Shown one piece after another: positions 55 to 63,310 of a stretch of DNA of 64,000 bases. The notes beneath the pieces are model-generated. The model was not told the origin of the DNA. It did no database searches and saw only the letters and a program-made list of their open reading frames with translations. The stretch comes from an uncultured Chlamydiae bacterium (GTDB taxonomy: Bacteria; Chlamydiota; Chlamydiia; Chlamydiales; JAJFMB01): the NCBI GenBank assembly GCA_963696295.1, contig CAVOJR010000001.1, positions 1,216,001 through 1,280,000 of the forward strand, given 5' to 3'. Position numbers and translations under genes: made by a program. Positions within the stretch are counted from its first letter, which is position 1. Every line of letters starts with the position of its first letter.

Positions 55-711
55 TTAATTCATAAGAATCTGTCGAAGCTTTTGATGAATAAATTCATTG
101 CATTCAGGATTGATGTGGACATTATGATCACTCAAATCAACGATTAAGCTGCCATCCTCATTGGCATAATCATCATATACATCAAGAAAAGCAATCCCCT
201 TTTGGCTGCAAACATCTGCTAATTTGGCATTCAACTGCTTAGCAATAGATATCCGCTCCTCTAACGGCCCATAACGAGGAACATTTGGGTTATAAACATA
301 ATCAGTTGGCGGGGTAACTGAATATACAATGCAAGACAAATTGTGGTATAGCTCGCGATTTAATAAAATGGTCTTGATATAATGGTGGACCAAAGTATCG
401 ATAATTTCATAGACGGTACGATTGAAGCGATCTCTCTGCTTTCCAATATGACACCGCACATCAATTTCTCCAAATGCAAAAACCACCGCCTGCCCTTCCT
501 TGACACCTAAGTTTTGCAAATTAAGAAATGATAACCCATCACGTCCAATGCGATGCATGGTACAAGAGCCTATTTGATGCACCCTGCAATTTGGAATCCG
601 AGCAAACTCTCCCGCATGACTGTCACCAACAACAAAGATGGGGGGTAGAGAGTCCTCCGCAGCGTTAACTGTGATAAATAAGGAGCAGAGAATGAATAAA
701 AAGATTTGCAT
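55..711 (-). CDS. SGNH/GDSL hydrolase-family protein with signal peptide (possible glycan O-acetyl esterase/transferase)
   Basis: Block I VVGDSH, FGEIDVR block, C-terminal DHNVH (DxxH); N-terminus MQIFLFILCSLFITVNA-A resembles a Sec signal. Confidence 0.7.
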   Translation of the reverse strand: MQIFLFILCSLFITVNAAEDSLPPIFVVGDSHAGEFARIPNCRVHQIGSCTMHRIGRDGLSFLNLQNLGVKEGQAVVFAFGEIDVRCHIGKQRDRFNRTVYEIIDTLVHHYIKTILLNRELYHNLSCIVYSVTPPTDYVYNPNVPRYGPLEERISIAKQLNAKLADVCSQKGIAFLDVYDDYANEDGSLIVDLSDHNVHINPECNEFIHQKLRQILMN

Positions 712-810
712 ATGACCAACCTGTATTTAAAGACAATTATTCAAATTCTTCTTTTAAAATCAAGTCTGTTGATGTATATTGATCAGAATATGAAAAAATA
801 AGGAATTTCT

Positions 811-1746
811 ATGAGAAAATCTCTGTTACTCTTAACTTTTTATTGCGCCTCTTTGTATGGAGAGGTCATTGATATCATATCGACATTTACCTTTGACCTG
901 CCTGTCAATTATTCCGCAATCAACGCTGCCGGTTTTGATATACAAGGACATGCTGACATCAAAAAATATGAAAATTTATTAGTGTCGCCTTACCCTCCGA
1001 CTCCGTACAAAGTCATTGTCTGGAATCATGTCTTAGGAGGTGGTTCCCCCATTTTCAAGTTGCCTAAAGAAAAACTGATATTTTTTCTATGGGAGCCCTG
1101 GGGTTTATCATCCGGTTATTATGCGTTATATTCCAAAATTTTTACATGGGACGATAGCTTAGTGGATAATAAAAAATATTTCAAATTTTATTACCCATTC
1201 TTAATGCCTATGATCTCAGATCTTCCCTTATTTGAAGACAAAGAATTTTGCACAATGGTTGCATCCAATATGACCAAAGAGCGTATTCAGATCATTAACT
1301 TTTTTGAAACCAAACCGGCGGGAGAATTTGTGTTCTATGGAGTTAAGCCCTATCACAGCAAAATGTACCGTGGCTCCATTCCAGGAGATCCTGCAAGCAT
1401 TGAAAAAATTTCCACCCTTAAAAAATATCGCTTTTGTATTTGCTTTGAAAATACTACATACTTGCAGGGTTATATCACAGAAAAGATTTTTGCCTGTTTT
1501 GCAGCAGGCTGTGTTCCAATCTATTGGGGAGCTACAAATGTCGAAAAATACATTCCAAAATCCTGCTACATCGATTATCGCGACTTTTCAACTCTGGAAG
1601 ACCTCTATCAGTATCTTAAAGGGATGGACAAAGAGACGCATGCGCAATATATTCAGAACATACTTGCTTTTCTTGAAAGCGAAAATGCAAAATTGTTCTC
1701 TCCAGCCTACTTTGAACAAGTGATTTATGAGGCAATTACCGAGTAG
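811..1746 (+). CDS. GT10 alpha-1,3/4-fucosyltransferase-like protein with signal peptide
   Basis: GT10 motif YRFCICFENT...GYITEKIF...AGCVPIYWG; hydrophobic N-terminus ending SLYG-E. Confidence 0.85.
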   Translation: MRKSLLLLTFYCASLYGEVIDIISTFTFDLPVNYSAINAAGFDIQGHADIKKYENLLVSPYPPTPYKVIVWNHVLGGGSPIFKLPKEKLIFFLWEPWGLSSGYYALYSKIFTWDDSLVDNKKYFKFYYPFLMPMISDLPLFEDKEFCTMVASNMTKERIQIINFFETKPAGEFVFYGVKPYHSKMYRGSIPGDPASIEKISTLKKYRFCICFENTTYLQGYITEKIFACFAAGCVPIYWGATNVEKYIPKSCYIDYRDFSTLEDLYQYLKGMDKETHAQYIQNILAFLESENAKLFSPAYFEQVIYEAITE

Positions 1747-2584
1747 ACCAAAATGATTTATTCAACTTAATAATTGGGATATCTGGATTAAAAAAAGAAG
1801 CACACAAACTAAGATTGGAATCTGTCCTTATTAATAAATCGGTTTTTGAAAGTAAAATACAATCAATAAGCGCTTCCTCACCGCATTGATAATGATTACG
1901 TTGAGGATTATGATGCACGGATAAATGGTTAGTGGAACGAGCGGCATCATGATAACATACCAGCCCTGGAAACTGAAATGATAACCAATCTACAAAAGAA
2001 ACTTCATCTGTAGCCAGAAATATTCTGTATTCTTTATCTTGTAACTTGCTGATTTGAAAATTGATAGCAGTTAAAATCTCTTCATATGCAACTCGAGGGG
2101 CTTCTATCATTTTATCGGTTCCTCGATAATGTACACCAATAATGAAATTGTCTTGAAAATTATCTCTAACAAACGATGCTACTTTATCATTGATATGAGA
2201 TTTCACATGTATATATTTATTTATTAGATTGTAATTGTAACTTCGAGAATTACAATATTCTATTTTCCAACTATCATGATAGTAAGTAGTAATAATATTG
2301 GCTGAATCATGGGTTCCTAAAAAAATAGGCTCAAAATAATATTCCCACCAGTTTTTTCCATGTAATGGATCAAAATAGGCTCCCTCACAATCAAAATCAA
2401 CTGCCATTCCCTGAATTAAATGGTTATCATAAGATTGAAGAACCGCAAGCACATCTTGAAAAATACTAAACATCCCATCGGGTCTGCTTTTCACAATGAT
2501 AAATTCAGCACAATCTGCCTTGTAAAGAGAAAAGCATAAACATATCAATAAAATTTTTCTTGAAATTTTTATAAAAAAAGACAT
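1736..2584 (-). CDS. NodZ/GT23-like alpha-1,6-fucosyltransferase with signal peptide
   Basis: GVHYRGTDK, FLATDE and DCILLSKTDLLIRTDSNLS motifs; NWWEYYFEP; hydrophobic N-terminus. Confidence 0.75.
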   Translation of the reverse strand: MSFFIKISRKILLICLCFSLYKADCAEFIIVKSRPDGMFSIFQDVLAVLQSYDNHLIQGMAVDFDCEGAYFDPLHGKNWWEYYFEPIFLGTHDSANIITTYYHDSWKIEYCNSRSYNYNLINKYIHVKSHINDKVASFVRDNFQDNFIIGVHYRGTDKMIEAPRVAYEEILTAINFQISKLQDKEYRIFLATDEVSFVDWLSFQFPGLVCYHDAARSTNHLSVHHNPQRNHYQCGEEALIDCILLSKTDLLIRTDSNLSLCASFFNPDIPIIKLNKSFWSTR

Positions 2585-2597: not shown

Positions 2598-3443
2598 TTA
2601 TTTTACTAAAATGACAGGCAGTGCTGGATTGAAATAGGTAGCACACAAGCCCATGTTAGAACTGGTCCGAACAAGGTAATCGCATTTGGTCAACAATAAG
2701 CAGTCGACAAGGGCATCTTCACCTTTTTTGTATGGATTCAATTTTTTATTCAAATGCACCGCTTGGCTATCCATAGAGCGGTATGCTCCTTGATAGAATG
2801 TTGTGCAGTTGGGAAATTGTGCTTCCATGTATGCTAGAAAAGGCTGTTCATCAGTTGCTATGAATAGCATATATCCGCCTTCCCATAATTCTAATTCTGC
2901 AATAACTGAGCGGACAACCGAGGCAATTTTATCATAACTCACTCGTGGTACTTCAGAATTTTTATCTGTGCCTCTATAATGGATGCCAATCATAAAATTG
3001 CTAAATTGCTCATCGGTAATAGCTTGAACCTTTTCCAAAATGTGATGCTTAACCTTCACATATTTACAAATTAGTTCATGACATCTTTCCTTAGATGTAT
3101 GATGCTCGATAAACCATGGGAGAACATTTGGGATTTGATAGATTTCTTCAATGCGGGCATTTTCAGGTGAACCAACATCAAGAGGTTCAAAATAATAATT
3201 CCACCAATTCGGTCCATAAGCTTCGTCGTAATAAACACCATGCTCTCCAAATTCAAACCTTAATCCGGCTATCGAATCTTGGTGTTCATCATATGTCCTA
3301 ATATTTCCCAGCATGGTTTTTAAAATATTAAACATCCCCTCCCCTTCAGATCCCAGAACAATATAATAGGGTTTTAATGGTTCTGCATTAAGCCTAAAGA
3401 AGAGCTGAATCACCAAAATAAAAATGAAAGATAAGGTGCGCAA
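2598..3443 (-). CDS. NodZ/GT23-like fucosyltransferase, tandem paralog, with signal peptide
   Basis: GIHYRGTDK, FIATDE, DCLLLTKCDYLVRTSSN; N-terminus ends RLNA-E; RBS AAGGAG upstream of TTG start. Confidence 0.75.
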   Translation of the reverse strand: MRTLSFIFILVIQLFFRLNAEPLKPYYIVLGSEGEGMFNILKTMLGNIRTYDEHQDSIAGLRFEFGEHGVYYDEAYGPNWWNYYFEPLDVGSPENARIEEIYQIPNVLPWFIEHHTSKERCHELICKYVKVKHHILEKVQAITDEQFSNFMIGIHYRGTDKNSEVPRVSYDKIASVVRSVIAELELWEGGYMLFIATDEQPFLAYMEAQFPNCTTFYQGAYRSMDSQAVHLNKKLNPYKKGEDALVDCLLLTKCDYLVRTSSNMGLCATYFNPALPVILVK

Positions 3444-3771: not shown

Positions 3772-4488
3772 ATGATCAAAAAATGCTTTTTATATTTTGC
3801 GATGCTTTTGACACCGTTAACAATTTCCTCAGATGAACCCCCAGAAATCATTGATTTCAATTCGACATGGACGCATGGCTATCAATCCATGTATGACGAT
3901 CCCACATGGTACCTAGGACATTATGGTTTCAACTACGCCCCTGAATTTACTGCTTATTTTTCCATGCTCAAGAATAAGTATCACATCGATACTGTGATTG
4001 AAACAGGCACATTTATGGGCTCGACAGCAGTCTGCTTTTCTCTTTTATTCGACCATGTCTATACCATTGAAATCGTCGACTCGACTTACCGCAAAACAAA
4101 AGAATATCTGGATCAATTTTCAAATATCCAATTCTATCTAGGAAGCTCAGACAAAGTTTTAAAGGACATATTGCCCTTAGTGCAACACAAACCAGTCCTG
4201 TTTTATTTAGATGCACACTGGTTTGATCATTGGCCTTTATTAGCTGAACTCGAAGAGATTTGCAAAACACATCAAGATAACTGTGTCATTGTGATTGATG
4301 ACTTTAAAGTCCCTGGACGGCCAGAAATTCCTTATGATAGATATGGATCTCAAGAATGTTCCTATGAGTATATCAAACCTAGACTTGATGAAATTTTTTC
4401 GGGATATACGATCCATTATCTTATTCCCAAAAGGATCGATTCCCGGGCAAAATTTGTGGCAATCCCAACAAATTGGGAAAAAAAATAA
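3772..4488 (+). CDS. Class I SAM-dependent methyltransferase with signal peptide
   Basis: IETGTFMG motif I, FYLDAH, VIVIDD; hydrophobic N-terminus. Confidence 0.7.
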   Translation: MIKKCFLYFAMLLTPLTISSDEPPEIIDFNSTWTHGYQSMYDDPTWYLGHYGFNYAPEFTAYFSMLKNKYHIDTVIETGTFMGSTAVCFSLLFDHVYTIEIVDSTYRKTKEYLDQFSNIQFYLGSSDKVLKDILPLVQHKPVLFYLDAHWFDHWPLLAELEEICKTHQDNCVIVIDDFKVPGRPEIPYDRYGSQECSYEYIKPRLDEIFSGYTIHYLIPKRIDSRAKFVAIPTNWEKK

Positions 4489-4563: not shown

Positions 4564-5496
4564 TTAGTATTTTAAAATTATCCAGTCCGCGGGGACAACA
4601 TCTTTTGAATTTAACCCTGCACTATCGTTAAACCAAACAGGAGGTGTTATAATGATTTTATGGGGATTGGGATTCAGGTATGCCGCCCACCATGAAAAAC
4701 TCGAATGACAAATGATATTATGTTTGCACATGCTCATTAAGTACAGGTCATGATAGTGTTCCTCGCCTTCGACAAAGTACATATTGCGAGGAATATCAGC
4801 AAGTTCCTTTTTACATAAATTCATATCATTAGAAAAAACTATAAATAGAGTGTCTGCAGGAAATAATGACATTGCCTTTTCAAAATAGCATTTCCCATAA
4901 AAAGGATATATGCGCTGCGCTGGATCAAAGTCAAGGTAAGATCTCATATGGACTGATACTGTGTTGGGACAATTCAACAAGTCACCATATTTTTTTTGAA
5001 GGTACTCAGTAATTTCGGGATGTGGCTTAAAAAGTTCTATTATTTCCTTTTTGTGATGTTGAAAGTATTTTTCAGACTGAAAATAACCAGCTATGCACAT
5101 ATTTGGACTATAAGGTATCGGCGCATAGTGGTAATGAGGTTCTTTGTAACGAACGGATATATGCTTATTCTGCGGCATAAAAGGGTTTAAATGATAAAAT
5201 ACTTTCTGATAATTTAAAGGTATATTATCCACAGTTTTATTAACTAGATCTGGAAAAATAGGATCAGAGTCGTGATCAAGAGCTAAACTTACGGTTGCCG
5301 CAATGACGAACATTTGATTTCCTAGTTGTCCAGTTAACTCCCCTACCACGAAAGAATTCAGTGCAAAGGCGGTGTTAAAAACGCTAAAGCAGTAAATCAA
5401 AATTATTGTAATTTTACCAATATAGTAATTTTGAAAAATAACCCGCGAAAAATGGAATAAAAATAGGTAATTCATATCACTGTCAAATTTCATCAT
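4564..5496 (-). CDS. GT11 alpha-1,2-fucosyltransferase-like protein with N-terminal signal/anchor
   Basis: GQLGNQMF, GYFQSEKYF, VSVHMR, SSFSWWAAYL motifs; hydrophobic stretch ending TAFA-L; true start may lie downstream of the ORF start. Confidence 0.85.
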   Translation of the reverse strand: MMKFDSDMNYLFLFHFSRVIFQNYYIGKITIILIYCFSVFNTAFALNSFVVGELTGQLGNQMFVIAATVSLALDHDSDPIFPDLVNKTVDNIPLNYQKVFYHLNPFMPQNKHISVRYKEPHYHYAPIPYSPNMCIAGYFQSEKYFQHHKKEIIELFKPHPEITEYLQKKYGDLLNCPNTVSVHMRSYLDFDPAQRIYPFYGKCYFEKAMSLFPADTLFIVFSNDMNLCKKELADIPRNMYFVEGEEHYHDLYLMSMCKHNIICHSSFSWWAAYLNPNPHKIIITPPVWFNDSAGLNSKDVVPADWIILKY

Positions 5497-5777: not shown

Positions 5778-6644
5778 ATGCGAGAAAAAAAATTTCAATC
5801 CCTTTTTTTCTACCTTTTCCTATTATTTTTTTGTTCGTTACCAGGCTTTCTAAAAGGTTATGACAATCAATTAGCTGTGTGCACAATCTTTAAAGATAAT
5901 GCCGAGTATTTTAAAGAATGGATTGAATTTCACATGTTGGTTGGTGTAGAGCACTTTTATCTTTATGACAATTCCAGCACAGATAATTCACTTGAAATAC
6001 TCGACCCTTATATTCAACAAGGTATTGTCACAGTAATCGATTGGCCGAATAAAGGGGGTTACTGGGTGCACTCAACTCAAGAGGCAGCTTATAATCATTG
6101 TGGAAGGTTAGCATCAGGAAAGACAAAATGGGTGGCGGCCATTGATACCGATGAGTTTCTATTTTGCGAAGACATTGAAAATATTCCCGATTTTTTACAA
6201 CAGCATGATGATGAAGCTGCCATTTTCGTTTGGTGGAGAGTTTATGGAACATCCGGCGTACTTGATATTCCTCCGGGTTACTTGATGATTGAGCTTCTCT
6301 ATAAAAGATTTCCTGATAATCACGATCGAAATAAACAAGGAAAATTAATTTTTAAACCTGAAGAATTATTAGAATTTGATTGGGCGGGCCATCGATGCAA
6401 GTTAAAGAATAATGCGATTACTTATGTATCAAAAGTGACAGATATTCGAATTAATCATTATGTTAATCGAACGATTAACTTCTTTCTTAAGCAAAAGAAG
6501 CAACAAAAGGAAGCAATGGATAACCGCAATTATAGTGATGAACAATGGCTAAGTCATTTAAATGATGGCAACGACATAGAGGATCGAATAATGGATCGAT
6601 TCATTCCAGTTTTGCGAAAGAGAATGGGTTTTTCCAACGACTAA
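5778..6644 (+). CDS. GT92/GT2-like (GT-A fold) glycosyltransferase with signal peptide
   Basis: EWIEFHMLVGVEHFYLYDNSSTD, WVAAIDTDEFL (DxD), RINHY. Confidence 0.75.
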   Translation: MREKKFQSLFFYLFLLFFCSLPGFLKGYDNQLAVCTIFKDNAEYFKEWIEFHMLVGVEHFYLYDNSSTDNSLEILDPYIQQGIVTVIDWPNKGGYWVHSTQEAAYNHCGRLASGKTKWVAAIDTDEFLFCEDIENIPDFLQQHDDEAAIFVWWRVYGTSGVLDIPPGYLMIELLYKRFPDNHDRNKQGKLIFKPEELLEFDWAGHRCKLKNNAITYVSKVTDIRINHYVNRTINFFLKQKKQQKEAMDNRNYSDEQWLSHLNDGNDIEDRIMDRFIPVLRKRMGFSND

Positions 6645-6759: not shown

Positions 6760-7593
6760 ATGCACAATCGTTTTTGGCTTTTTATATTAGTTGGATTACT
6801 TATAATGAATAATGCAACATGCTCACATCAAAGCATAACAGGGAATCACTCAAGTTACATTGAAGCATGTCGTAAAGCTGTAAATGATCCTCTCTATTTT
6901 CAAAATTTTCGTTCTACCCATGAATATGCGTCAAATGTAGAGTGTTATGGGTTTGGAAACGAGTTTGCTCAATATCTTCTTACAAATGCTTCTCCACAAA
7001 CCTTAGAAAAGTTGGAGCAATTTAGAAGGCTTGATCAGTATGGCAATCCTTTAACAAAGGACATTGAGGGGGTAGGGAGATTTTCAGAAACAACTTTGAG
7101 GTATATTATAGTCGCAGATCAAATAAAAGAGTTGTTTAACTTGCCCAGTAATCCCAAAATAGTAGAGATAGGGGCCGGATTTGGGGGACAATGCTATATT
7201 TTATCACAAATCCAAATTTTTTCAGATTATTTTATTTACGATCTTCCAGATGTTGAGAATTTAATAGAAAAAATGTTAAAAACTCTTTCAATTGAAAGAG
7301 TGTCTCTTATACCTCAATATGTACCACTTCCTGAGAGTAATGTTGATTTGTTAATTAGCAACTATGCATTTTCTGAATGTGACAGACAAACTCAACTAGA
7401 CTACTTTGAAAGAGTTTTGAAGAAAGCTGATAGAGGTTATATGCTTTTTAATCAGCTTCACGTTTTTGACTCATTATCACTAGCCGAGTTTGTAAAATTA
7501 TTAGAAGATAATAATATGAAACCTCAACTATATGAAGAACCAGTTTTAACTTATAAGGATAATGTATTGGTCACCTGGGATAAAACTAATTGA
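6760..7593 (+). CDS. Putative sugar O-methyltransferase with signal peptide
   Basis: VEIGAGFGG motif I, YDLP, DLLISNYAFSEC; hydrophobic N-terminus. Confidence 0.7.
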   Translation: MHNRFWLFILVGLLIMNNATCSHQSITGNHSSYIEACRKAVNDPLYFQNFRSTHEYASNVECYGFGNEFAQYLLTNASPQTLEKLEQFRRLDQYGNPLTKDIEGVGRFSETTLRYIIVADQIKELFNLPSNPKIVEIGAGFGGQCYILSQIQIFSDYFIYDLPDVENLIEKMLKTLSIERVSLIPQYVPLPESNVDLLISNYAFSECDRQTQLDYFERVLKKADRGYMLFNQLHVFDSLSLAEFVKLLEDNNMKPQLYEEPVLTYKDNVLVTWDKTN

Positions 7594-7709: not shown

Positions 7710-8477
7710 ATGAAACTGGTGGTTTTTAGTTTTCTATTTTTCACGACAACTCTATTTTCAATCCCTCCTCGGGATATACCTCCTGAGCATAGAGACGCTT
7801 TTACGATGAATGGTCAAATTCCTGTTGATTATTGGTATATTGATGGGACTTATTCCAGCGATCAACCTGTTGTTTTTTCAAAGGATATGGTGGATAACCT
7901 TGTTAAAAAGGCTAAAGCAAAGAAAGTATGGTACTACGGTCATACTGATACATGGCTTTATAAAGCTATCGAAACCTATGTCGGTGATTTTCAAGGAAAA
8001 ACCGTAGGTATTATAGGAAGCGTAACAGCCTGGTATGAAGCAATTATATTAGCCTATAATGGCAAGCCAGTGACAATAGAGTATAACAAGATCATCACTG
8101 ACCATCCTGGGATTCAAGTAATGACCGTTGAAGAATACAAGAAAAACCCAATTACTTTTGATTACCTCCTTTCTGTCTCATCAATTGAGCATGATGGTCT
8201 TGGACGTTATGGTGACCCAATTAATCCATTTGGTGATATTGAAACCATGCAAGAATTAACAGGTTGGTTAAAAGAAGAGGGACTGTTTTTTCTCTCTATG
8301 CCTGTAGGAAAGGATTTACTTGTTTGGAACGCACATCGCATTTATGGACTGATTCGTTTACCAATGCTTCTTCAGTCTTGGGAGGTAGTAGGGAGTGTTG
8401 GTCATTCAGAGAAACATTTTTTAGTGAGCGATGCCTCGCATCAACCTGTCTTTGTTCTGAAACTTCCTAAAAAATAG
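7710..8477 (+). CDS. DUF268-family (methyltransferase-like) protein with signal peptide
   Basis: SSIEHDGLGRYGDPINP and PVGKD...NAHRIYG motifs typical of DUF268; N-terminus MKLVVFSFLFFTTTLFS. Confidence 0.75.
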   Translation: MKLVVFSFLFFTTTLFSIPPRDIPPEHRDAFTMNGQIPVDYWYIDGTYSSDQPVVFSKDMVDNLVKKAKAKKVWYYGHTDTWLYKAIETYVGDFQGKTVGIIGSVTAWYEAIILAYNGKPVTIEYNKIITDHPGIQVMTVEEYKKNPITFDYLLSVSSIEHDGLGRYGDPINPFGDIETMQELTGWLKEEGLFFLSMPVGKDLLVWNAHRIYGLIRLPMLLQSWEVVGSVGHSEKHFLVSDASHQPVFVLKLPKK

Positions 8478-8635: not shown

Positions 8636-8914
8636 ATGAAAGACCGTACCTGGGTGGATTTCCTGGAAATGTGTTCCAAAATCCAAGACGCTAAGAAGCT
8701 GGATCGATTTTTTGATCTGTTTTTGACCATAGAGGAGCGGGAAACCGTGGCCTCCCGGAGCGTCATTATTAAGGCGCTGCTTGAGGGAAAACTGACGCAG
8801 CGGGAGATGGCTGAAAAATATAAGGTCAGCATCGCTCAAATTACAAGGGGATCGAATGCCCTGAAAATCATCGATCCGGAATTTAAACTGTTCCTGGAAC
8901 AACTATTTAAGTGA
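8636..8914 (+). CDS. trpR: Trp operon repressor
   Basis: LFLTIEERE...[30 protein letters not shown] is the TrpR HTH signature. Confidence 0.95.
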
Positions 8915-10059
8915 AGGCTATGGAAAAAGGAAGCGCCCTGGGGGCCACATTATTAATCACGGGGTGCTGCATCGGAGCGGGCATGATCGGCTTGCCGGTG
9001 GTGAGCGCCATGGCGGGTTTCATCCCCTCCACTTTAGCCATGCTCCTTTGCTATGGCTTTGCGACCGGAACCGGCTTGCTGATTCTGGAAGCGACCTTAT
9101 GGTTCGATCAGCGAGTCAATCTCATCTCAATGGCCGACTTTGCCCTGGGAAGAGCCGGCAAAGCGCTCACCTGGTTCCTCTTTCTCTTTCTTTTCTACTG
9201 CCTGTTCGTCGCCTACATAGACGGGGGCGGACAATTGTTTGCCAAGTTCTTCTCCGTCCCAAGGGAGATCGGGGTGCTGATGTGCGTTAGTTTCGTCGGC
9301 GCGGTGGTTTATGGTGGAACGAGAGCGGTCAGCGGCGTCTGCCGGCTGCTGCTCTTCGGCTCGGCCCTCTCCTACCTCGCCATGCTCTCTTTGGGCCTGC
9401 CGCATGTCCAGGGGCAGCGGCTGCTCTATGCCGATTGGAGCGCAACCCTGGCCACTTTGCCTATCTTGCTGGTCTGTTTCGGATACCAAAATCTGATCCC
9501 GACTCTGACCTACTACACGCAGAAAAACATCAAGGCGCTCCGCACGGCGATTTTTGTCGGGAACCTGATCCCTTTTCTCATTTATTTCCTCTGGAATTTC
9601 GTCATTCTGGGTCTGCTCCCTCAGGGAATTGCCTGCGAGAGCCATATGGTGACAGGGCTGCTCGAAAAGGCCTCCGAATCGGAGTCAGTCCTTTTCTTCG
9701 CGATAGCCTTTTCCTTCTGCGCTATTTTGACTCCCTTCATCGCCAACACGCTCACTTTTGTCGATTTTCTCAAAGACGGCCTAAAAACCTCCAAGGAGCT
9801 GGCCATTTATGGCCTAGTCCTGATCCCGCCGACGCTGCTAACCCTCTTCTACCCCAATCTCTTTTTGAAAGCTCTTGGCATCGCGGGGGGATTTGCCGAT
9901 GTGATTTTATTCGGCCTCCTGCCGGTATCGATCGTGTGGATCGGCCGCTATCATAAAAACGCGAAAGGGCCTTTCACGGCACCGGGGGGAAAACTCTTTT
10001 TGATCATCGTCCTCCTCTTTTCCCTGGGCTTTCTTTTTATAAGGAGTCCGCTATGTTAA
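8911..10059 (+). CDS. tyrP: Aromatic amino acid permease (HAAAP, TyrP/Mtr family)
   Basis: [20 protein letters not shown]-terminal motif, about 11 TM segments, [10 protein letters not shown]; lies within the trp operon. Confidence 0.8.
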
Positions 10060-11036
10060 AACTGCTGATGGAAAAGCCCTCCTTGACGCGGGATGAAGCG
10101 GAATCGGCTATGACGACAATTTTGGAAGAGGCCGACCCGCATCAGACGGCTGCTTTTCTCGCCATTTTAAAGTACCGGGGCGAAACGCCGGCAGAGATCG
10201 CGGGGATGGCAGCGGCTTTGCAAAAAAAAGCGGTGCCCGTGAATCTCCCTCAGCCCACTTTAGACATTGTCGGCACGGGGGGCGATATGGCCAATACGGT
10301 CAATATTTCCACCGGCTCCGCCCTCCTGGCTGCCGCCTGCGGCATCCCGGTGGCAAAGCATGGCAACCGCTCCGCTTCGAGCCGAAGCGGCTCCGCCGAT
10401 GTCCTGGAAGCCTTAGGGGTTAAAATTGAGATCCCGCCGGAACAATTGGGGCGCTGTCTTGAGGAAATGAGCCTCGCTTTTATGTTTGCTCCCGCTTATC
10501 ACCCTGCCTTAAAAAAAATGGCGCCGATCAGAAAAGGGCTTAAATACCCAACCGTTTTTAATATTTTGGGCCCGCTGCTTAATCCGGCGAGGTCGGAGTA
10601 TGCATTAATTGGCGTGGCGAGCGAGCCTGTCCTGGAGCGGATGAGCGAGGTCATTTTACAGATGGGGGATAAAAAAAGGGTCCTCCTTTTTCACGGGTGC
10701 GGCCTGGATGAATTGACGCCTCTTGGAAAAATGATAGCCTACGACATCAAAGGAGGGCAAAGGAGACGCTTCGAGATTGACCCGGAGTCCTTGGGTTTTT
10801 CCCTCTGCACCCTGAAGGAGCTGCAAGGGGGAGACGCAAAAGCAAACGCGGCTATTTTGAGCGAGGTTTTTGCCGGCGGCCAGGGGGCCGTGGCCGACGC
10901 TCTGATTTTTAACGCCGGAGCCGCCGTCTGGATTTTCGGCGCGGCCCCCACTTTAAATGAGGGCATTCAAAAGGCGCGCCAAGTCCAGCAGGAGGGAGGA
11001 GCGCTCAAAATTCTGGAAAAATGGAGGGCCCTATGA
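10053..11036 (+). CDS. trpD: Anthranilate phosphoribosyltransferase
   Basis: DIVGTGGD, NISTG, VAKHGNRS, GSADVLEALG, GLDEL. Confidence 0.95.
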   Translation: MLKLLMEKPSLTRDEAESAMTTILEEADPHQTAAFLAILKYRGETPAEIAGMAAALQKKAVPVNLPQPTLDIVGTGGDMANTVNISTGSALLAAACGIPVAKHGNRSASSRSGSADVLEALGVKIEIPPEQLGRCLEEMSLAFMFAPAYHPALKKMAPIRKGLKYPTVFNILGPLLNPARSEYALIGVASEPVLERMSEVILQMGDKKRVLLFHGCGLDELTPLGKMIAYDIKGGQRRRFEIDPESLGFSLCTLKELQGGDAKANAAILSEVFAGGQGAVADALIFNAGAAVWIFGAAPTLNEGIQKARQVQQEGGALKILEKWRAL

Positions 11037-53701: not shown

Positions 53702-56700
53702 ATGGTTCGACAAATTAATCCAACAATTCAGGCTTATCAACAACAATTCCAACCGGTAATCAATAAAGCTGGAGTAAAAGACCTTCCAAAACCTGCCTCG
53801 CTAACTCCAATCAAAAAGAAGTTCGAAGCCTCGATTCCAAAACCGCCTGCATCTCTAAAACCCCAAAAAATTGAAACAGTCCCGCCAAAGACAGCGGCAA
53901 AACAAACACTTCCTCCGCCACCTCCAATGGTTCAAACAAAACTTCCTCCGCCACCTCCAATGGTTCAAACAGAACTCCCTCCACCTCCTCCAATGGTCGA
54001 GATATCTCAAGAACCTCTTGTACTCCCTCCACCGCCTCCAATGGCCGAGGTATCTCAAGAACCTCTTATACTCCCTCCGCCTCCTGAAACCATGGAGACA
54101 GAGAAGCAAAAGACAAAACCCCCTCCGCCACCGCCAAAAATGAATCCTCATGAGTGGAATGAAAAGGTAAAAAACTTGAAATGGTGGGAAAGAATCTCTT
54201 CCAAGATTCAAGTAGTGGACAGAAAACATGCATTGATTCCCGTTGTGGAAAATGCCTTGATTCCCCGGTTCTTTACTATCAGGTCATTGGTCAATGGCTC
54301 TAAGGACCCGGTCGTGGAAAATGTCAGCTATACTGCCGCCGCCTTGGAGGCGTGCATGGATAGGCAGATGGCTAAAAAACTCGATTACAACGACCTGGAC
54401 TCGCTTGAAGACATGCTGGATTTTAGTCAGCAAATTGAAAATGACGATCTCATGAAGTCCCAAATCGGAGAGGAAAAAATTGTAACTTATAGAAAAACCA
54501 TGTCAGTCAAATTGCTGACGGTCTTGCAAGAGGGCATAGAAGCCTATCGCGCCAATAAGCTCCCGGAAAAAAATATGAGCCGGATCATTTCGCTTTGGAA
54601 TAAATCGCTCCTGAACTATCGGTTGATCTGGAAGTGCCACGATGATCCTCAAAAAAGGCTTTCCTATGTGTCGGAGACCCTAGAACAGATCGATCGTGAA
54701 ATTGAAAAAAAACACAATCCCCCAATGGATCTCAATGAGTGGAATGAAAAGGTAAAAAACTTGAAATGGGATAAAAGAATCTCTTCCAGGATTGTGGGCG
54801 GGAAATTGATTCCCGTTGCGGAAAATGCCTTGATTCCCAGGTTCTATGTTATCAGGTCATTGATCCAATGGAAAAAGGGCTATGGCTATAAGGATCCTGT
54901 CATGGAAAATGTCCGCCTTACAGCTGTCGCCCTCGAGGCGTGCATGGAGAGGCAGATGGCCAAAAAACTCGATTACCACGACCTGGACTCCCTTGAAGAC
55001 ACCCTGGATTTTAGCCAGCAAATTGAAAATGACGATTTCATGAAGTCCAAAATCGGGACAGATAAAATTATTTCATATAGAAAAACCATGTCAGTCAAAT
55101 TGCTGACGGTCTTGAAAGAGGGGATGGAAGCCTATCGCGCCCACAATCTCCCAGAAGAAAATATGAGCCGGATCATTTCGCTCTGGAAAAAATCGCTCCT
55201 GAACTACCAGTTAATCTGGAAATGCCACGAGGATCCTCAGAAAAGGCTTTTCTATGTGTCGGATACCCTGGAAAGAATCGATCACGAAATTGAAAAAATT
55301 CACAACCCTCCTCCGCCGAAACCGGAGAATCCGCTGCACGACCCGTTTCTTGTGGTGAATGTCAAAGAATGGAACAAAGCCGTCAGAGACTTGAACGATT
55401 GGGAGGTTATTTCTTCCGAGGCGCAATATGTCAATGCCGAAAAAACTTTGGTTCCCGTACCTGAAAAAAATTCAACCCCGAGATTTTACTTCATCAGGCG
55501 CTTGATTCGCCTCTATTACCAGTATCAGGAAAAAGATTATCAGGATTCCACTTTAGACAAAATCCATAGGACCGCTTTTGGCCTCTCGAAAACTATAGAA
55601 TCTCATATCGCCAACAAATCCACCGACCTGGATTCTATCGAAGAATCGATCGATGTTTTTCAAAAGATCGAAAAAGACTCTGCGATGCACTCGGAAATCG
55701 GCAATCAACAAATGGAGCAATTTAGAATATCCCTTTCCGACCGGCTGATAACGGCGATGAATATAGAGACCGATCCAAAAAACGTGGCTTCCGTATCCAA
55801 AGAGAGATTAATCAAAATCCGTTCGGTCTGGCAAAAATCGCTTCTCAACTACTGCGTCATCTGGCAGAGCCGCGATCATGAACTTCAACTTATCAATAAA
55901 GCAACCAAAAGCGTTGACCGTCAGATCGATAAGCTGGAGCGGATGGAGAAAAAAACCGCTGCCATCCAAGCGCTGAAAAATGAGTGCCAAACTTTGGTGG
56001 GGAAAGGTCAGGATAACTTAAAAGCCCTGGAAGCCTTAGAAGGACCCTACAAAAAATTAACCACCACCGAGCAGAAAGATAAAGAGCTTTTTGACCATTT
56101 CAGACAAGAGTATAGAGAGATCAATAAAAAATTGGCCGATTTCAACCAGAAACTCTCCCCGCTGATTGGAAATCTGGATCACTTAAGCGAAGAGGAGCTG
56201 GATAATATAGCCGGAAAGGTAGCTGTGCTTTATGAAAATGAATTTACACCCATCATTGTCAATTTCCAAAATATCATGTACTATCACAGACCTTTTAGTC
56301 ATTTATTGGACAATGGGGAAAAACGGGTAAGGCATAATCCTCATCTCGCTAAAGAGTGGTGGAACGGACTCGATGAAGCTTTCCGCAAAAAGCAGACGGA
56401 AACCCTGGCTTGGACAAATCCCACACTAATAAGAGCAAAAAGGTATACAGTGCCGCCCGCCTTCGGGACACTCGCCACCCTGTATGTCACTCCGTACTCA
56501 AAATTGAAAGATTCGCACCAGGATGTCAGCGCTGCTATTAAAGCCTTCCAGGAATTAGCTGCTCAAAACAAGGAAAACCTGCCGATTCTAAAACAACACG
56601 CCACCGATAAAAAACTGGAAATGTTTTATGAGCAATATGTTAAGACGGATCAGCTTCTGCAGGAATTTCAACTGACATTATCCAAGATAAATGCAGAGGA

Positions 56701-57046
56701 TAAATTGACGGAAAAAGAGTGGGCCAAAGTGAAATTCCGCCTTCAGCAACTCATGGACAATTATGAAGTGGTGCGCGCTTATCATCGGCAGATGCCCAAA
56801 CCCTATTTCCCTTTCAGCGCCGCGCCGCTGCCTATCAAACCGGAAGAGCCTGTGCTGGACTTTGTCAAGGTTTTTACGCCCACATTGCCCTTCCTCGATT
56901 TTTACCAATCCTACGCCGCTCCCCTTTGCGAGCTAAAAGAACTTGTGATCAACAGCTACCCGAACTTAAAGAAACTGAAATCCTGCATAAATAAATTATT
57001 TAGCGACGCTCCCTGCAAACCCAGAGTTCTTTGGCATAACTGGTAG
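53702..57046 (+). CDS. 1114-aa polyproline and tandem-domain protein; T3SS effector candidate
   Basis: Multiple LPPPPP(M) tracts, three ~195-aa repeats, coiled-coil C-terminus, no signal peptide; immediately upstream of sctJ. Confidence 0.75.
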   Translation: MVRQINPTIQAYQQQFQPVINKAGVKDLPKPASLTPIKKKFEASIPKPPASLKPQKIETVPPKTAAKQTLPPPPPMVQTKLPPPPPMVQTELPPPPPMVEISQEPLVLPPPPPMAEVSQEPLILPPPPETMETEKQKTKPPPPPPKMNPHEWNEKVKNLKWWERISSKIQVVDRKHALIPVVENALIPRFFTIRSLVNGSKDPVVENVSYTAAALEACMDRQMAKKLDYNDLDSLEDMLDFSQQIENDDLMKSQIGEEKIVTYRKTMSVKLLTVLQEGIEAYRANKLPEKNMSRIISLWNKSLLNYRLIWKCHDDPQKRLSYVSETLEQIDREIEKKHNPPMDLNEWNEKVKNLKWDKRISSRIVGGKLIPVAENALIPRFYVIRSLIQWKKGYGYKDPVMENVRLTAVALEACMERQMAKKLDYHDLDSLEDTLDFSQQIENDDFMKSKIGTDKIISYRKTMSVKLLTVLKEGMEAYRAHNLPEENMSRIISLWKKSLLNYQLIWKCHEDPQKRLFYVSDTLERIDHEIEKIHNPPPPKPENPLHDPFLVVNVKEWNKAVRDLNDWEVISSEAQYVNAEKTLVPVPEKNSTPRFYFIRRLIRLYYQYQEKDYQDSTLDKIHRTAFGLSKTIESHIANKSTDLDSIEESIDVFQKIEKDSAMHSEIGNQQMEQFRISLSDRLITAMNIETDPKNVASVSKERLIKIRSVWQKSLLNYCVIWQSRDHELQLINKATKSVDRQIDKLERMEKKTAAIQALKNECQTLVGKGQDNLKALEALEGPYKKLTTTEQKDKELFDHFRQEYREINKKLADFNQKLSPLIGNLDHLSEEELDNIAGKVAVLYENEFTPIIVNFQNIMYYHRPFSHLLDNGEKRVRHNPHLAKEWWNGLDEAFRKKQTETLAWTNPTLIRAKRYTVPPAFGTLATLYVTPYSKLKDSHQDVSAAIKAFQELAAQNKENLPILKQHATDKKLEMFYEQYVKTDQLLQEFQLTLSKINAEDKLTEKEWAKVKFRLQQLMDNYEVVRAYHRQMPKPYFPFSAAPLPIKPEEPVLDFVKVFTPTLPFLDFYQSYAAPLCELKELVINSYPNLKKLKSCINKLFSDAPCKPRVLWHNW
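53900..54085 (+). repeat. Coding tandem repeats (about 33-bp x3 and 48-bp x2) encoding LPPPPPM units
   Basis: CTTCCTCCGCCACCTCCAATGGTTCAAACA repeated; GATATCTCAAGAACCTCTT/GGTATCTCAAGAACCTCTT repeated. Confidence 0.9.
54140..55310 (+). repeat. Intragenic ~585-bp tandem duplication (third diverged copy about 55355-55950)
   Basis: GAGTGGAATGAAAAGGTAAAAAACTTGAAATGG and many later blocks recur at an offset of about 585-600 bp. Confidence 0.9.
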
Positions 57047-60836: not shown

Positions 60837-61679
60837 ATGGGAGAAAGCTACGCCGATCTCTTCATGAAGAGTGTTTTTGCCGAAGCCAATCCTATGGCTT
60901 TCCTTTCGCTCTGCTTTCTATTCTTTGCCAGAATTCTGCCCATTATCGCCCAGGCGCCTTTTTTTGGAGCAAAGGTATTGCCCCACACGACAAAAATGGC
61001 TCTGGCCATCGCTCTGTTTGCCATTTTTATGCCCAAATTATTAGTCACGGTGAAAGTAGCCCCGCAATTTGACAGCAGTTTGATTTTTCTGGTCATGAAA
61101 GAACTGGCCATAGGATTTATCCTGGGCTTTCTCATCACCATCCCGTTCAATATCGTGCAGGCCGCCGGGATTATCATCGACCACCAAAGAGGTGGCGCGA
61201 GCTTGATGATCAATGACCCCGCCGTGCAAAACCAATCCTCTCCTTTAGGCACTTTTTACAATTTGGTTTTCATTTTCCTCTTTTTTATGATTGACGGCCC
61301 GTTTTTATTTATCGATGCGATTATTACTTCGTACGAGATCATCCCGGCCGACCAATACTTTAACCCTATCCTCACCGAAAAAAGCACCATGTACTGGAAA
61401 GTGACCATGGGTCTGTTGAATAAAGTGATGCTCATGGCCACCCAGCTGGCTTCTCCTGCCCTGATCGCTATCTTAATGACGGACTTGTTCCTTGGCATTG
61501 CCAACCGCTTAGCCCCTCAGGTACAGGTGACCTTTTTGGGCATGCCGTTAAAATCACTGCTCGGATTGTTCGCAGTGACACTCGGATGGAGTTTGTTCAC
61601 GGATCAAATCGCCCGCGAAGCCATTGCCTGGCTGCAGAACATGACAGAATTAATCTATTCCTTTGGACAAAAGGTATGA
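60837..61679 (+). CDS. sctT: T3SS export apparatus SctT
   Basis: AGIIIDHQRG, LGIANRLAPQVQV..LGMPLK. Confidence 0.93.
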   Translation: MGESYADLFMKSVFAEANPMAFLSLCFLFFARILPIIAQAPFFGAKVLPHTTKMALAIALFAIFMPKLLVTVKVAPQFDSSLIFLVMKELAIGFILGFLITIPFNIVQAAGIIIDHQRGGASLMINDPAVQNQSSPLGTFYNLVFIFLFFMIDGPFLFIDAIITSYEIIPADQYFNPILTEKSTMYWKVTMGLLNKVMLMATQLASPALIAILMTDLFLGIANRLAPQVQVTFLGMPLKSLLGLFAVTLGWSLFTDQIAREAIAWLQNMTELIYSFGQKV

Positions 61680-62608
61680 TTTTCTTGAGTTATATCCTGG
61701 GCGGCATTCTGCTTTTATATGCCGGTGCGGAAATGCTGATTCGCGGCGCATCGCGCGTGGCATTTCGTTTAGGCGTTCCCTCTTTAATCATCGGATTGAC
61801 TATAGTGTCGATGGGAACATCCCTGCCTGAGGTTGTCACGGCCTTCATAGCGCAATGGGAAGGGGGCAAGGGAGATCTCGCCCTGGGCAATGTGATCGGT
61901 TCCAACATCGCAAATGTGGGTTTGATTGTTGGCGTTACTGCTTTAGCCCGGCCCCTGGTATGTGCCCCCCATGTTGTAAAAATTGATATGCCGCTTTTAA
62001 TTTTGTCGCAAATCCTTTTACTGCTTTTGATGATTCCATTAACCATTTATCGCATTAGTGGATTGCTGATGGTATCATTGATGGTCGCCTATGTGATTTA
62101 CTGCGTGAAAACAGGCGAGCAAACAGTTGAAGAACAGGAACTGGCCAAACTGAAGCCAAATAATTCTTGGCTCATCGTAGATATTCTCCTTATCATCGCA
62201 GGGCTTTTGGCTCTGGTTTTCGGAGGAGATTATTTTGTAAAGGGCGCGGTGCAAATAGCGACTCATTATCATATTTCGGAACGGGTCATCGGTCTTACCA
62301 TTGTCGCCATAGGCACTTCCCTTCCGGAATTAGCCATCACTTTTGTCGCTGCCTATAGAAAGCACACCGACATTGCCTTAGGAAACATCGTTGGAAGCAG
62401 CATCTTTAACAGCCTCTTTATCGCCGGGGGCGTCTCGCTTCTCATTCCCATCCATTTTTCCCAAAAGCTGCTGCTGGTGGACGGCCCCATCATGCTCCTC
62501 TTTTGCCTGCTGCTTTGGCTGATCATGTACCGGAAGCGCCAAATATCGCGGCTAAGCGGTGCCATCCTGCTGATATGTTATGCGCTTTATCTGATCAGCT
62601 TGACGTAA
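61676..62608 (+). CDS. Calcium/sodium antiporter (CaCA, YrbG-like)
   Basis: Two alpha repeats GTSLPE...GNVIGSN and GTSLPE...GNIVGSS; ATG overlaps the sctT stop. Confidence 0.9.
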   Translation: MIFLSYILGGILLLYAGAEMLIRGASRVAFRLGVPSLIIGLTIVSMGTSLPEVVTAFIAQWEGGKGDLALGNVIGSNIANVGLIVGVTALARPLVCAPHVVKIDMPLLILSQILLLLLMIPLTIYRISGLLMVSLMVAYVIYCVKTGEQTVEEQELAKLKPNNSWLIVDILLIIAGLLALVFGGDYFVKGAVQIATHYHISERVIGLTIVAIGTSLPELAITFVAAYRKHTDIALGNIVGSSIFNSLFIAGGVSLLIPIHFSQKLLLVDGPIMLLFCLLLWLIMYRKRQISRLSGAILLICYALYLISLT

Positions 62609-62611
62609 GTT

Positions 62612-63310
62612 TCATTGCAGCTTTTCAAGAAACTCCTTGCGAACAAAAAGGAGATCCCAACGATTCCTTTCCACAAAATGATACCCTTTAGATTCTAAAA
62701 AAGGAACAAAACGTTCATCTCCATAATTATCTTCAAGTGTAATCACGTCAATTGTGTACTTAGAATAATCAATCGAAGAGATAATCTCAAACTCTCCACC
62801 TTCGGTATCCAAACTTAAGAAATCAATATGAGAGAAACCAAATTTATCCAACAAATCGTTAAGAAAATAGCAGTTAACTTTCATTATTTCAATGGAACCG
62901 CTGTTTTGTGCAATTTCGGTTTTTACTCTTGCAAAATGTCTTGGGTCAAGTTTGCTAAGTAATCCTGAGAGCATCTCAACTTCAGGGCATTTCACTCTTA
63001 AGAAATCACCAGGTCCTGTAAAGTCAGTGACACAACCCTGGATGCAATAACAGGAGCGATTTTTCTGCAATTGTTCAAATACCTCGGGAATAGGCTCAAC
63101 ACATAAACCTTTCCAGCCCAATTCTTTTTCAAAAAAATAACTATTGCTTAAAGTTATCCCATTATGTGCGCCAACTTCGACAAAAACGCCATCTTTCTTA
63201 TTTTTGAAATACCTGGTGTTTGCAATTTCATCCTGATTTATCTGACTATAGTATGAGCAAAAACAAAAGAGAGGCATTGAAAGAAAAAACAAGATCGCTC
63301 TTATCTTCAT
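62612..63310 (-). CDS. FkbM-family methyltransferase with signal peptide
   Basis: YSQINQD, EVGAHNGITLSNS, GLCVEP, SLDTEGGE; N-terminus MKIRAILFFLSMPLFCFC; AT-rich. Confidence 0.85.
   Translation of the reverse strand: MKIRAILFFLSMPLFCFCSYYSQINQDEIANTRYFKNKKDGVFVEVGAHNGITLSNSYFFEKELGWKGLCVEPIPEVFEQLQKNRSCYCIQGCVTDFTGPGDFLRVKCPEVEMLSGLLSKLDPRHFARVKTEIAQNSGSIEIMKVNCYFLNDLLDKFGFSHIDFLSLDTEGGEFEIISSIDYSKYTIDVITLEDNYGDERFVPFLESKGYHFVERNRWDLLFVRKEFLEKLQ

Follow-up and report, generated by a model that had tools for sequence, protein, structure and literature searches.

In textbook bacterial glycan synthesis, nucleotide-sugar-dependent enzymes are cytoplasmic, and the donors used outside are lipid-linked. 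Here, we describe a 64-kb stretch of the chromosome of an uncultured Chlamydiae bacterium (GenBank assembly GCA_963696295.1, contig CAVOJR010000001.1, positions 1,216,001 to 1,280,000; hereafter the window, or G000:C1:1216001-1280000, where G000 is the source genome and C1 its chromosome), in which a dispersed set of glycosyl-, methyl- and sulfotransferase genes encodes products with N-terminal leaders resembling Sec-type signal peptides. The closest precedent is glycogen synthesis in the inclusion lumen of Chlamydia trachomatis, which, as reported by Gehre et al. (2016, eLife; PMC4829429), exports enzymes of glycogen metabolism into the lumen and takes up UDP-glucose from the host. There, as proposed here, enzymes including a nucleotide-sugar-using glycosyltransferase are located outside the bacterium in the vacuole lumen and are supplied with donor by the host; in that study, the enzymes are few and bear signals for type III secretion, and a host transporter (SLC35D2) was shown experimentally (PMC4829429), whereas our set comprises dozens of enzymes of other families with Sec-type leaders, known from sequence alone. 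Likewise, Lgt1-3, SetA and LtpM of Legionella, an amoeba-dwelling intracellular bacterium, are glycosyltransferases acting beyond their own cytoplasm on host UDP-glucose; in contrast to the enzymes considered here, they are reported to be Dot/Icm type IV substrates with host cytosolic targets (PMC8961657, PMC6393602). They belong to other families and are not known to have Sec leaders.

When compared to the machinery of the Golgi and endoplasmic reticulum (ER), the set comprises the same CAZy-type families together with sulfotransferases of the kind that use 3'-phosphoadenosine 5'-phosphosulfate (PAPS). In the Golgi and ER, catalytic domains are situated in a non-cytosolic compartment, and some nucleotide-sugar interconversion takes place in the lumen. 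In the eukaryotic enzymes, which have type II membrane topology, the catalytic domain is preceded by a cytoplasmic tail, an anchor and a stem, whereas in our set a short, cleavable-looking leader is followed directly by the catalytic domain, and no above-threshold nucleotide-sugar transporter of the eukaryotic family is encoded in the genome. Families GT10 and GT11 also include the Lewis-antigen fucosyltransferases of Helicobacter pylori (GT10 FucT, 2nzw/5zoi; GT11 FutC), which are cytoplasmic, act on lipopolysaccharide (LPS) and are not known to have a signal peptide; the similarity between FucT and the window GT10 is confined to about 80 residues of the nucleotide-binding region (PDB 2nzw, E 4.7e-12). 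In rhizobia, Nod factors are decorated by NodZ, by NoeI (an FkbM-type 2-O-methyltransferase), by the sulfotransferases NoeE and NodH and by the acetyltransferase NolL, all of which are cytoplasmic and act on chito-oligosaccharides. A similar chemical logic is found in the window, with its mix of NodZ-like fucosyltransferase, FkbM methyltransferase, sulfotransferase and acyl-esterase-like enzyme, but the sequence similarity to NodZ is weak (2hhc, E 1.1e-5). Finally, a gene close to the window encodes a close homologue of the plant NRS/ER (4qqr) and of mimivirus L780/R141 (7jid, 6vlo) and is paired with a 4,6-dehydratase gene, as in giant viruses. Residues 13 and 7 of the plant and mimivirus structures correspond to residue 19 of the chlamydial protein, to which a hydrophobic leader of 18 residues has been added, a feature shared with homologues from Dependentiae and absent from the plant and mimivirus proteins. 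We found no description in the literature of signal-bearing glycosyl-, sulfo- or methyltransferase sets, or of exported nucleotide-sugar enzymes, in Chlamydiae or Dependentiae.

Sec-type leaders in the window and across the genome

All 17 glycan-tailoring open reading frames (ORFs) on which the original prediction was built are present where it had placed them. They comprise a GT10, a GT11, three NodZ/GT23-like genes, a GT92, a GT34-methyltransferase fusion, five other methyltransferases, three sulfotransferase-like genes and one SGNH-like gene. Signals were called with a home-made rule based on hydrophobicity, n-region charge and the residues at -3/-1, in which the best uncharged hydrophobic stretch beginning within 20 residues was taken, the n-region charge had to be non-negative and small residues were sought at -3/-1. 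The claim that nearly all of these enzymes carry a Sec-type signal largely stood: a leader was called on 14 of the 17, and two more, the third NodZ-like protein (NodZ3) and the GT11, were accepted by inspection (16/17), leaving the sulfotransferase-like ORF 40739-41599 without one. For NodZ3, a GTG start at 39903 with GGAG 7 nt upstream gives the leader MRLLFFIFYLTSLHA/NQ (the slash marks the predicted cleavage site throughout), while the GT11 (4564-5496) has a long atypical N-region followed by ITIILIYCFSVFNTAFA/L (…NTAFA/LN) and has a paralogue with a canonical signal at C1:1037497. The ten cleavage motifs quoted in the prediction all occur in the translations, and the FkbM methyltransferase coupled to metK (27104-27823), put forward there as an internal control, proved to be signal-free, as claimed.

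Genome-wide, the rule was positive for 675 of 2843 greedy ORFs, or for 625 of 2786 (22%) with the candidates removed. In the window, it was positive for 26 of 65 ORFs, corresponding to the 14 tailoring enzymes and 12 others, which include TolB, Pal/OmpA, a LysM protein, DsbD, SctJ, SctR, MsrB and two multi-pass transporters. The rule made no call among 15 window enzymes that are clearly cytoplasmic (Trp enzymes, kynureninase, RsmB, RsmD, MetK, MurI, TatD, Psd, Lpd, LipA and a response regulator). Tat signals and lipoboxes were also considered for the tailoring enzymes and rejected on reading the translations by eye; lipobox-like …GC motifs do occur in Pal and SctJ.

The original prediction was made from the window alone; the exported-type set, as recognized by its leaders, is genome-wide and not peculiar to this stretch. 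According to phmmer, the genome encodes three GT10, five NodZ-like, two GT11 and three Methyltransf_24 proteins, two members of the P-loop sulfotransferase-like family and two signal-type FkbM proteins, and all eight paralogues of signal families located elsewhere in the genome bear a leader. Twenty further regions were taken, with Pfam run on 127 of 154 ORF calls after 27 flanking or small ORFs had been dropped by hand. Their leader-bearing glycosyltransferases include GT25, GT47/RXYLT1-like, GT90, GT71, GT32-like and GT4-like proteins, accompanied by leader-bearing NKWYS, Sulfotransfer_1/_3/_4 and pyruvyl transferase proteins and by more methyltransferases. A whole-genome family census found leaders on six of six Sulfotransfer_1 (PF00685) proteins, one of them from an internal Met, on 8/11 Glycos_transf_1 proteins (those without being a glycogen-synthase-like ORF, GlgA, and two others) and on 4/23 short-chain dehydrogenases/reductases (SDRs) of the Epimerase family.

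Among these enzymes, the apparently leader-bearing nucleotide-sugar enzymes add to what had originally been predicted. At C1:1280016-1282010, 16-2010 bases beyond the window end, an NDP-glucose 4,6-dehydratase gene (PDB 6bi4, E 4e-73) is situated 12 bp from a gene encoding a plant-type NRS/ER, a 3,5-epimerase/4-reductase (plant 4qqr, E 7e-112; mimivirus L780 7jid, E 7e-67), and the two form a putative UDP-rhamnose synthase pair. Both proteins align to solved enzymes from residue 19, their first 18 residues being MLRYIIFFVFFFGSAFSE… and MLKFLCLLIFLFPLEAKN…, respectively. A leader-bearing GalE is encoded at C1:1604287-1605366 on the minus strand and matches PDB 4twr (E 1e-103) from residue 34, with the extension MKKYLFFLLIFCFSVDCA… preceding the match. 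Since leaderless RmlA, RmlC, RmlD, RmlB and a GalE-like gene (C1:1840073-1841059) accompany them in the same genome, exported-type and cytoplasmic versions appear to coexist.

When considering relatives in other genomes, the leaders were found to be widespread within certain lineages. Among the best 120 of 1228 relatives of the GT10, 100 have leaders, and most of the others look 5'-truncated; the named relatives are metagenome-assembled genomes (MAGs) of Chlamydiota and one labelled Verrucomicrobiota. Of 300 Chlamydiota genomes sampled, 106 contain the GT10 clade, spread over 66 of 165 genera, but it was found in none of the 29 genomes of one family (f4) whose genomes measure 1.0-1.2 Mb. For NRS/ER, a leader precedes the Rossmann motif in 112 of the best 120 of 5409 relatives, and four of the eight leaderless ones are long, their NRS/ER part beginning only at residue 169-232. 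A profile built from 36 of those 120 and used to scan GTDB species genomes returned 79 loci, with leaders in 18/19 from Chlamydiota, 17/18 from Dependentiae, 6/7 from MAGs labelled 'Pseudomonadota', 1/1 from Verrucomicrobiae and 10/13 from unnamed MAGs; nine rows failed the motif regular expression, two of which (L076 and L084) visibly have leaders. The original prediction was exposed to the objection that free-living homologues might share these N-termini, and such homologues were found without them: leaders occurred in 0/16 loci from the candidate phyla radiation (CPR) and 0/5 from Archaea. Leaders are likewise present in 92 of the best 120 of 299 FkbM relatives, and the leaderless ones, one of which is source-named Bacillus sp., start with M-x-YYSQxGQD, which is the predicted mature end of the window protein (…CFC/SYYSQ). 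Leaders are also present in 19 of 21 relatives of the sulfotransferase-like proteins. The leaders differ in sequence among relatives but retain their hydrophobicity, while the Bacillus, CPR, archaeal, plant and mimivirus homologues begin at the mature domain. By this distribution, the leaders are conserved, lineage-specific additions that evolve fast in sequence, are confined to host-associated lineages and are missing from free-living homologues.

A leader of this kind could also remain uncleaved. In an alternative that we regard as unlikely, the leaders would be tethers holding inner-membrane enzymes of ordinary LPS O-chain or capsule synthesis beside Wzm/Wzt, with donors imported into the bacterium and the catalytic domain facing the cytoplasm or situated on the periplasmic face only. 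Such an arrangement would fit the dTDP-rhamnose operon, GT2, DegT aminotransferase and Wzm/Wzt pair located 10-20 kb upstream of the first island, and some members do have longer hydrophobic stretches, namely the GT92 (17 amino acids), one GT4-like protein (22 amino acids) and a BMT-like protein (19 amino acids from residue 22). In the 50 called enzymes, however, the hydrophobic h-region has a median of 13 amino acids, too short for a membrane span, and does not exceed 17 in 48 of them, whereas for the first helix of 116 multi-pass proteins the corresponding median is 19. The mean charge is +2.4 before the h-region and -0.5 over the 15 residues after it, with the N-side more positive in 48/50, a bias that predicts a translocated C-terminal domain, and small residues forming a cleavage-type -3/-1 site follow the h-region in 49/50. 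Furthermore, soluble housekeeping-type enzymes (GalE, the 4,6-dehydratase and NRS/ER) bear leaders, and their cytoplasmic counterparts do not. In this pattern, the leaders resemble cleavable Sec signals, behind which the C-terminal domain is translocated, rather than anchors.

Gene content and surroundings of the window

The source genome of about 3.4 Mb consists of a 3.30-Mb chromosome (GC 47.1%) and a second contig of 135 kb, and is 97.4% complete. The organism belongs to a small family (f1), of which one other genome (G206, 2.1 Mb) was present in the 300-genome phylum sample. The backbone of the window is chlamydial, with the type III secretion system (T3SS) genes sctJ/L/R/T, the Tol-Pal cluster, a trp operon with kynureninase, DsbD, MetK and SecA, and no tRNA gene was found within the 64 kb when tRNA genes and integration marks were considered. 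The tailoring genes are AT-richer than their surroundings, as had been noted, their per-gene GC being 0.32-0.47, while the median of all greedy ORF calls in the genome is 0.48. A Pfam family was assigned at E<=0.01 to 13/17 tailoring ORFs and above the curated cut-off to 10/17. The family identities proposed in the original prediction were therefore borne out in part: the GT10, GT11, GT92, DUF268, two of three NodZ-like, two Methyltransf_24, GT34-methyltransferase and FkbM proteins exceed the cut-off, the GDSL-like 55-711, the NodZ-like 2598-3443 and the Sulfotransfer_1 match of 33652-34404 fall below it, and 3772-4488, 6760-7593, 34401-35144 and 40739-41599 have no Pfam match.

At the window edge is the 5' end (1-38, minus strand) of a further signal-bearing ORF, whose whole extent is C1:1215115-1216038 (307 amino acids, GC 0.37, N-terminus MLLRYFFICLLFWGNLNA/NP) and which has no Pfam match over the 242 residues searched. 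It is followed by a gene for an SGNH/GDSL-like hydrolase or acyl-esterase (55-711, minus; PF13472 30.8 bits, cut-off 32.9; signal …ITVNA/AE) and by the GT10 fucosyltransferase-family gene (811-1746, plus; PF00852 66.3 bits, cut-off 23.9; signal …ASLYG/EV), the product of which contains …CFENTTYLQGYITEK…, which we take to be the conserved GT10 nucleotide-binding motif. Downstream, two paralogous NodZ/GT23-like genes (phmmer E 1e-64) are located on the minus strand, the first encoding a signal-bearing fucosyltransferase-family protein (1736-2584; PF05830 43.7 bits; PDB NodZ 2hhc, E 1.1e-5) and the second a protein with the signal …FRLNA/EP (2598-3443; PF05830 19 bits, below the cut-off). In all three NodZ-like proteins of the window, PF19745 stays below its cut-off and the C-terminal half alone aligns. 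A methyltransferase-like protein with the signal …LTISS/DE (3772-4488, plus) is 28% identical (E 7e-20) to the N-terminal domain of a GT10 fusion protein, P0047, and is followed by the GT11 fucosyltransferase-family gene (4564-5496, minus; PF01531 89.4 bits, cut-off 23.9). The island continues on the plus strand with a GT92/GT2-like glycosyltransferase (5778-6644; PF01697 102.7 bits), whose 17-amino-acid hydrophobic N-terminus could be a signal or an anchor, a signal-bearing putative sugar O-methyltransferase (6760-7593; NCBIfam TIGR04371 56.6 bits, cut-off 44) and a signal-bearing DUF268 methyltransferase-like protein (7710-8477; PF03269 106.1 bits), whose nearest atlas cluster is chlamydial DUF268.

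The remaining members are scattered. The signal-free FkbM methyltransferase gene (27104-27823, minus; PF05050 64.1 bits) is situated directly upstream of metK (25932-27104), with a one-base overlap. At 33652-34404 and 34401-35144, both on the minus strand, two paralogues (phmmer E 1e-99) encode a sulfotransferase-like protein (PF00685 18.2 bits, cut-off 22; signal …SQCHG/WK) and a sulfotransferase-fold protein (signal …SFCFG/WE), respectively, followed by a Methyltransf_24 class-I methyltransferase (35276-35941, plus; PF13578 39.1 bits; signal …SYGFA/HD). A second island encodes, on the plus strand, the NodZ/GT23-like NodZ3 (39903-40718 from its GTG start, within an ORF from 39822; PF05830 35.5 bits) and a sulfotransferase-like protein recognized by its P-loop motif (GERHSGTN) and without a convincing signal (40739-41599), whose paralogue at C1:1712504 does have a signal and matches Sulfotransfer_3 weakly (E 2.3e-4). 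The third gene of this island, on the minus strand, encodes a fusion of a GT34-type glycosyltransferase and an O-methyltransferase (41810-43060; PF05637 83.9, PF13578 49.2 and PF01596 41.8 bits; signal …INLSA/SN). Finally, another Methyltransf_24 methyltransferase (49625-50263, plus; PF13578 37.3 bits; signal …TSIFA/NS) and an FkbM-family methyltransferase (62612-63310, minus; PF05050 65.8 bits; signal …LFCFC/SYYSQ) are found further downstream.

None of the three sulfotransferase-like ORFs exceeds a sulfotransferase Pfam cut-off, and a structural comparison was made for the 33652/34401 pair. An AlphaFold (AF2) model of 34401-35144 (pLDDT 92.7) was used in a Foldseek search of the PDB, in which the top 19 matches (E<=1e-3) were all PAPS sulfotransferases, the best with E 1.4e-4; their probabilities were 0.98-1.0, yet their TM scores only about 0.4. 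With Pfam matches below the cut-off or missing, the pair is therefore called sulfotransferase by fold and not by sequence thresholds. The family comprises 46 cluster representatives. In an alignment of 21 of these with the two window proteins (fragments and long multi-domain matches excluded), the loop S-x-G-R-S-G-S-T, taken as a P-loop-like PAPS-binding motif, was recognized, in which S, G, S and S are invariant and one G nearly so in the 23 aligned sequences.

The islands show signs of mobility and modularity. In the related genome G206, the gene order is DsbD-TatD-BaxI-SecA, whereas in the window (38980-43060) Psd and the three-gene AT-rich island 39903-43060 are located between TatD and BaxI; the island is an insertion into a conserved backbone. 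The window Psd, used as a query, gave no match in G206, while BaxI did. Fusions in relatives combine the same domains: in P0116, an N-terminal FkbM half 52% identical to the window FkbM 62612-63310 is joined to a GT10, and combinations of a 3772-type domain with GT10 and of GT10 with GT25 also occur. Together with the GT34-methyltransferase fusion of the window, these fusions speak for functional coupling. The FkbM gene recurs together with the 3' part of the adjoining Na+/Ca2+ exchanger gene (61586-63310) at C1:1831417-1832471, as an FkbM paralogue with 70% identity and a 121-amino-acid exchanger fragment, which suggests a segmental duplication in which a piece of the exchanger gene was copied as well. 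In another island nearby (C1:1829148-1830873), a histone-deacetylase-family gene and a GT47/RXYLT1-like gene are each present in two ORFs, with the leader of the latter on the first; these split genes are likely pseudogenes or indel errors.

Other elements of the region concern its surroundings. A leaderless envelope-polysaccharide cluster of the classical cytoplasmic type is situated 4-17 kb upstream of the window (C1:1198892-1212616) and is composed of a GT2, a Wzt/Wzm ABC transporter, rmlA-C-D-B, a DegT aminotransferase, a GFO/IDH oxidoreductase and an SDR epimerase, with a leader-bearing sulfotransferase gene (C1:1206981-1207751) in its middle. This O-chain-type pathway, unexpected for chlamydiae, may supply an acceptor. 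Within the window, a GC-rich block (8911-15473; 0.55-0.58 against 0.47 for the genome) contains a Trp/Tyr permease, trpD-C-F-B-A and kynureninase, and is followed on the opposite strand by an AT-richer gene encoding an AAA-ATPase-like/PD-(D/E)XK protein (15456-17141); their composition suggests separate acquisition. Two large plus-strand ORFs of 491 and 1114 amino acids (47431-48906 and 53702-57046) belong to no Pfam family, the second being located directly upstream of the T3SS genes sctJ-sctL, and both are candidate secretion-system-associated proteins or effectors. A search of public sequencing runs gave one DNA run, from a soil metagenome, and no RNA. The DNA run contains identical contigs of 151-250 nt, at depth 2-3, over 40928-43740 (island and flank), along with a contig that has a 1-nt deletion at 43665 relative to the window. 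The identical contigs show that the same or a near-identical organism is present there at low abundance.

Donors, export route and competing explanations

We consider it rather probable that the genes described above belong to a repertoire that extends over the whole genome and has spread horizontally, and that its enzymes gained cleavable Sec signals and work outside the cytoplasm on host-derived donors. The demand for donors is considerable, with three GT10, two GT11, five NodZ-like and more than ten sulfotransferase-like genes. When the 97.4% complete genome was searched for GDP-mannose 4,6-dehydratase (gmd), the six matches all proved to be other SDRs, the best of them scoring 72.7 bits where the cut-off is 415. 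Fucokinase/GDP-fucose pyrophosphorylase gave no match in the genome, with fcl and manC not searched separately, and adenosine 5'-phosphosulfate (APS) kinase gave none either (the control was positive in 11/14 genomes; ATP sulfurylase was not searched separately). Because none of these genes was found, GDP-fucose and PAPS are probably host-derived. The genome also encodes four NTT nucleotide transporters and the GspF component of a type II secretion system (T2SS). The original prediction had held that the enzymes leave the cytoplasm and use host co-substrates. Export is well supported by sequence, and the searches above agree with host supply; where the enzymes act, be it periplasm, vacuole lumen or host, and which glycans serve as acceptors are what we infer.

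Several observations weigh against this explanation. Eukaryote-type nucleotide-sugar transporters were represented in the genome search by sub-threshold matches of the drug/metabolite transporter (DMT) kind only. NRS/ER requires NADPH, which, to our knowledge, is not known outside the cytoplasm. The sole CysQ/inositol-phosphatase homologue of the genome has no leader, and no exported enzymes for handling by-products were seen among the genes considered; a search for a GDA1/CD39 NTPDase gave no match in this genome, with the control likewise matching nowhere. The rule itself produces false positives, RmlB being called through its Rossmann strand, and between one and four members of the set are without a clear signal, namely 40739-41599, a DUF6492 protein, one GT25 and a BMT/GH130-like protein. 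The overall tally of 50 leaders in 57 enzymes and the associated Fisher test are circular and were set aside, because most regions outside the window came from a list of low-GC, leader-bearing ORFs; unbiased counts come only from the window itself, from the paralogues identified by phmmer and from the census by family. A further objection concerns secA, of which the only copy in the assembly (44365-47400, plus) is broken and split into four ORFs, with intact genes on either side. A tblastn search with the N-terminal 463 residues of a relative's SecA found this locus alone, in frames 2, 3, 1, 2 and 1, and the gene shows at least four frame changes as well as in-frame stops at 45309 and 46090; the soil-run pieces over secA are mostly less than 90% alike. 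SecA is essential, and a real break would put Sec export itself in doubt. It is more likely an assembly fault, since TolB, Pal and DsbD depend on Sec too.

An EamA/DMT gene in the window (23896-24831, minus) scored 21.1 bits against 27 required for the eukaryotic nucleotide-sugar transporter family. It is separated from the metK-FkbM pair by one gene, a response regulator, and its product could carry S-adenosylmethionine (SAM) or a nucleotide-activated donor.

A second alternative, which we judge improbable, would place the enzymes further out, as effectors delivered by Sec and type II secretion, or by vesicles, to ER/Golgi-derived membranes or the host cytosol, where they would rewrite host glycans. 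Families typical of the eukaryotic secretory pathway (GT10, 11, 23, 25, 32, 34, 47, 71, 90 and 92, together with the sulfotransferases) would suit such a role, as would donors made by the host and the presence of a T2SS component, and glycosylating effectors are reported from Legionella (PMC8961657). Nonetheless, nothing in our analysis points to passage beyond the outer membrane, and the known chlamydial and Legionella effectors carry T3SS or type IV secretion signals and are not known to use Sec leaders. Exported donor interconversion, moreover, suits a closed compartment better, the host cytosol already having those donors.

In the last alternative, the leaders would be neutral remnants of genes taken over from a eukaryotic or viral source, or artefacts of gene calling, and the genes decaying cargo of AT-rich islands. 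This view fits the low GC (0.28-0.47), the insertion of the 39.9-43.1 kb island into the DsbD-TatD-BaxI-SecA backbone and the incomplete state of some paralogues, one GT47-like gene being split and one GT25 truncated, but is very improbable given that the ORFs are intact at 45-75% identity in hundreds of relatives and in the 106 of 300 Chlamydiota genomes, that the leaders vary yet stay hydrophobic, that they are also found on a bacterial-type GalE and a plant-type NRS/ER, and that plant 4qqr and mimivirus 7jid align to the NRS/ER only after its leader.

A possible exported glycosylation pathway

According to the explanation that we favor, protist-associated intracellular bacteria would deploy a repertoire of Leloir-type glycosyltransferases, SAM-dependent methyltransferases, PAPS-type sulfotransferases and nucleotide-sugar-interconverting enzymes outside their cytoplasm. 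The proteins would be exported by Sec across the inner membrane, presumably with cleavage of the leader. Their site of work would be the periplasm or, if they were carried further by type II secretion or in vesicles, the lumen of the host-derived vacuole, where they could draw on host GDP-fucose, UDP-sugars, SAM and PAPS, which should be available outside the inner membrane because they must cross that space to reach the bacterium and its NTT-type importers. The exported enzymes would interconvert some of these donors, from UDP-glucose to UDP-rhamnose and from UDP-glucose to UDP-galactose, and glycans at the surface of the bacterium, or on glycoconjugates of the vacuole or the host, would be assembled or decorated by stepwise fucosylation, methylation and sulfation. 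We reason that the vacuole lumen is topologically equal to the Golgi lumen, which would explain the occurrence of families of the eukaryotic secretory pathway.

More tentatively, and as a possibility that we hold to be less than even, protist-infecting Chlamydiota and Dependentiae may, by convergence or transfer, run a Golgi-like glycosylation compartment outside the inner membrane, be it the periplasm, the vacuole lumen or both. Host nucleotide sugars, PAPS, SAM and NADPH would enter this compartment and be interconverted by Sec-exported enzymes, and modular, horizontally traded enzymes would build glycans that resemble those of eukaryotes, with fucose, methyl and sulfate groups, on the surface of the bacterium or the vacuole.

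If this holds true, a large exported set that includes donor-making enzymes would overturn, for two phyla of intracellular bacteria, the rule that such chemistry is confined to the cytoplasm, and the notion of the pathogen vacuole as a metabolically active compartment would be extended from glycogen to complex glycans. The leaders, the predicted cleavage sites and the donor predictions supply candidates that can be tested. Such a repertoire could account for environmental chlamydiae coating themselves, or their vacuole, with host-like glycans.

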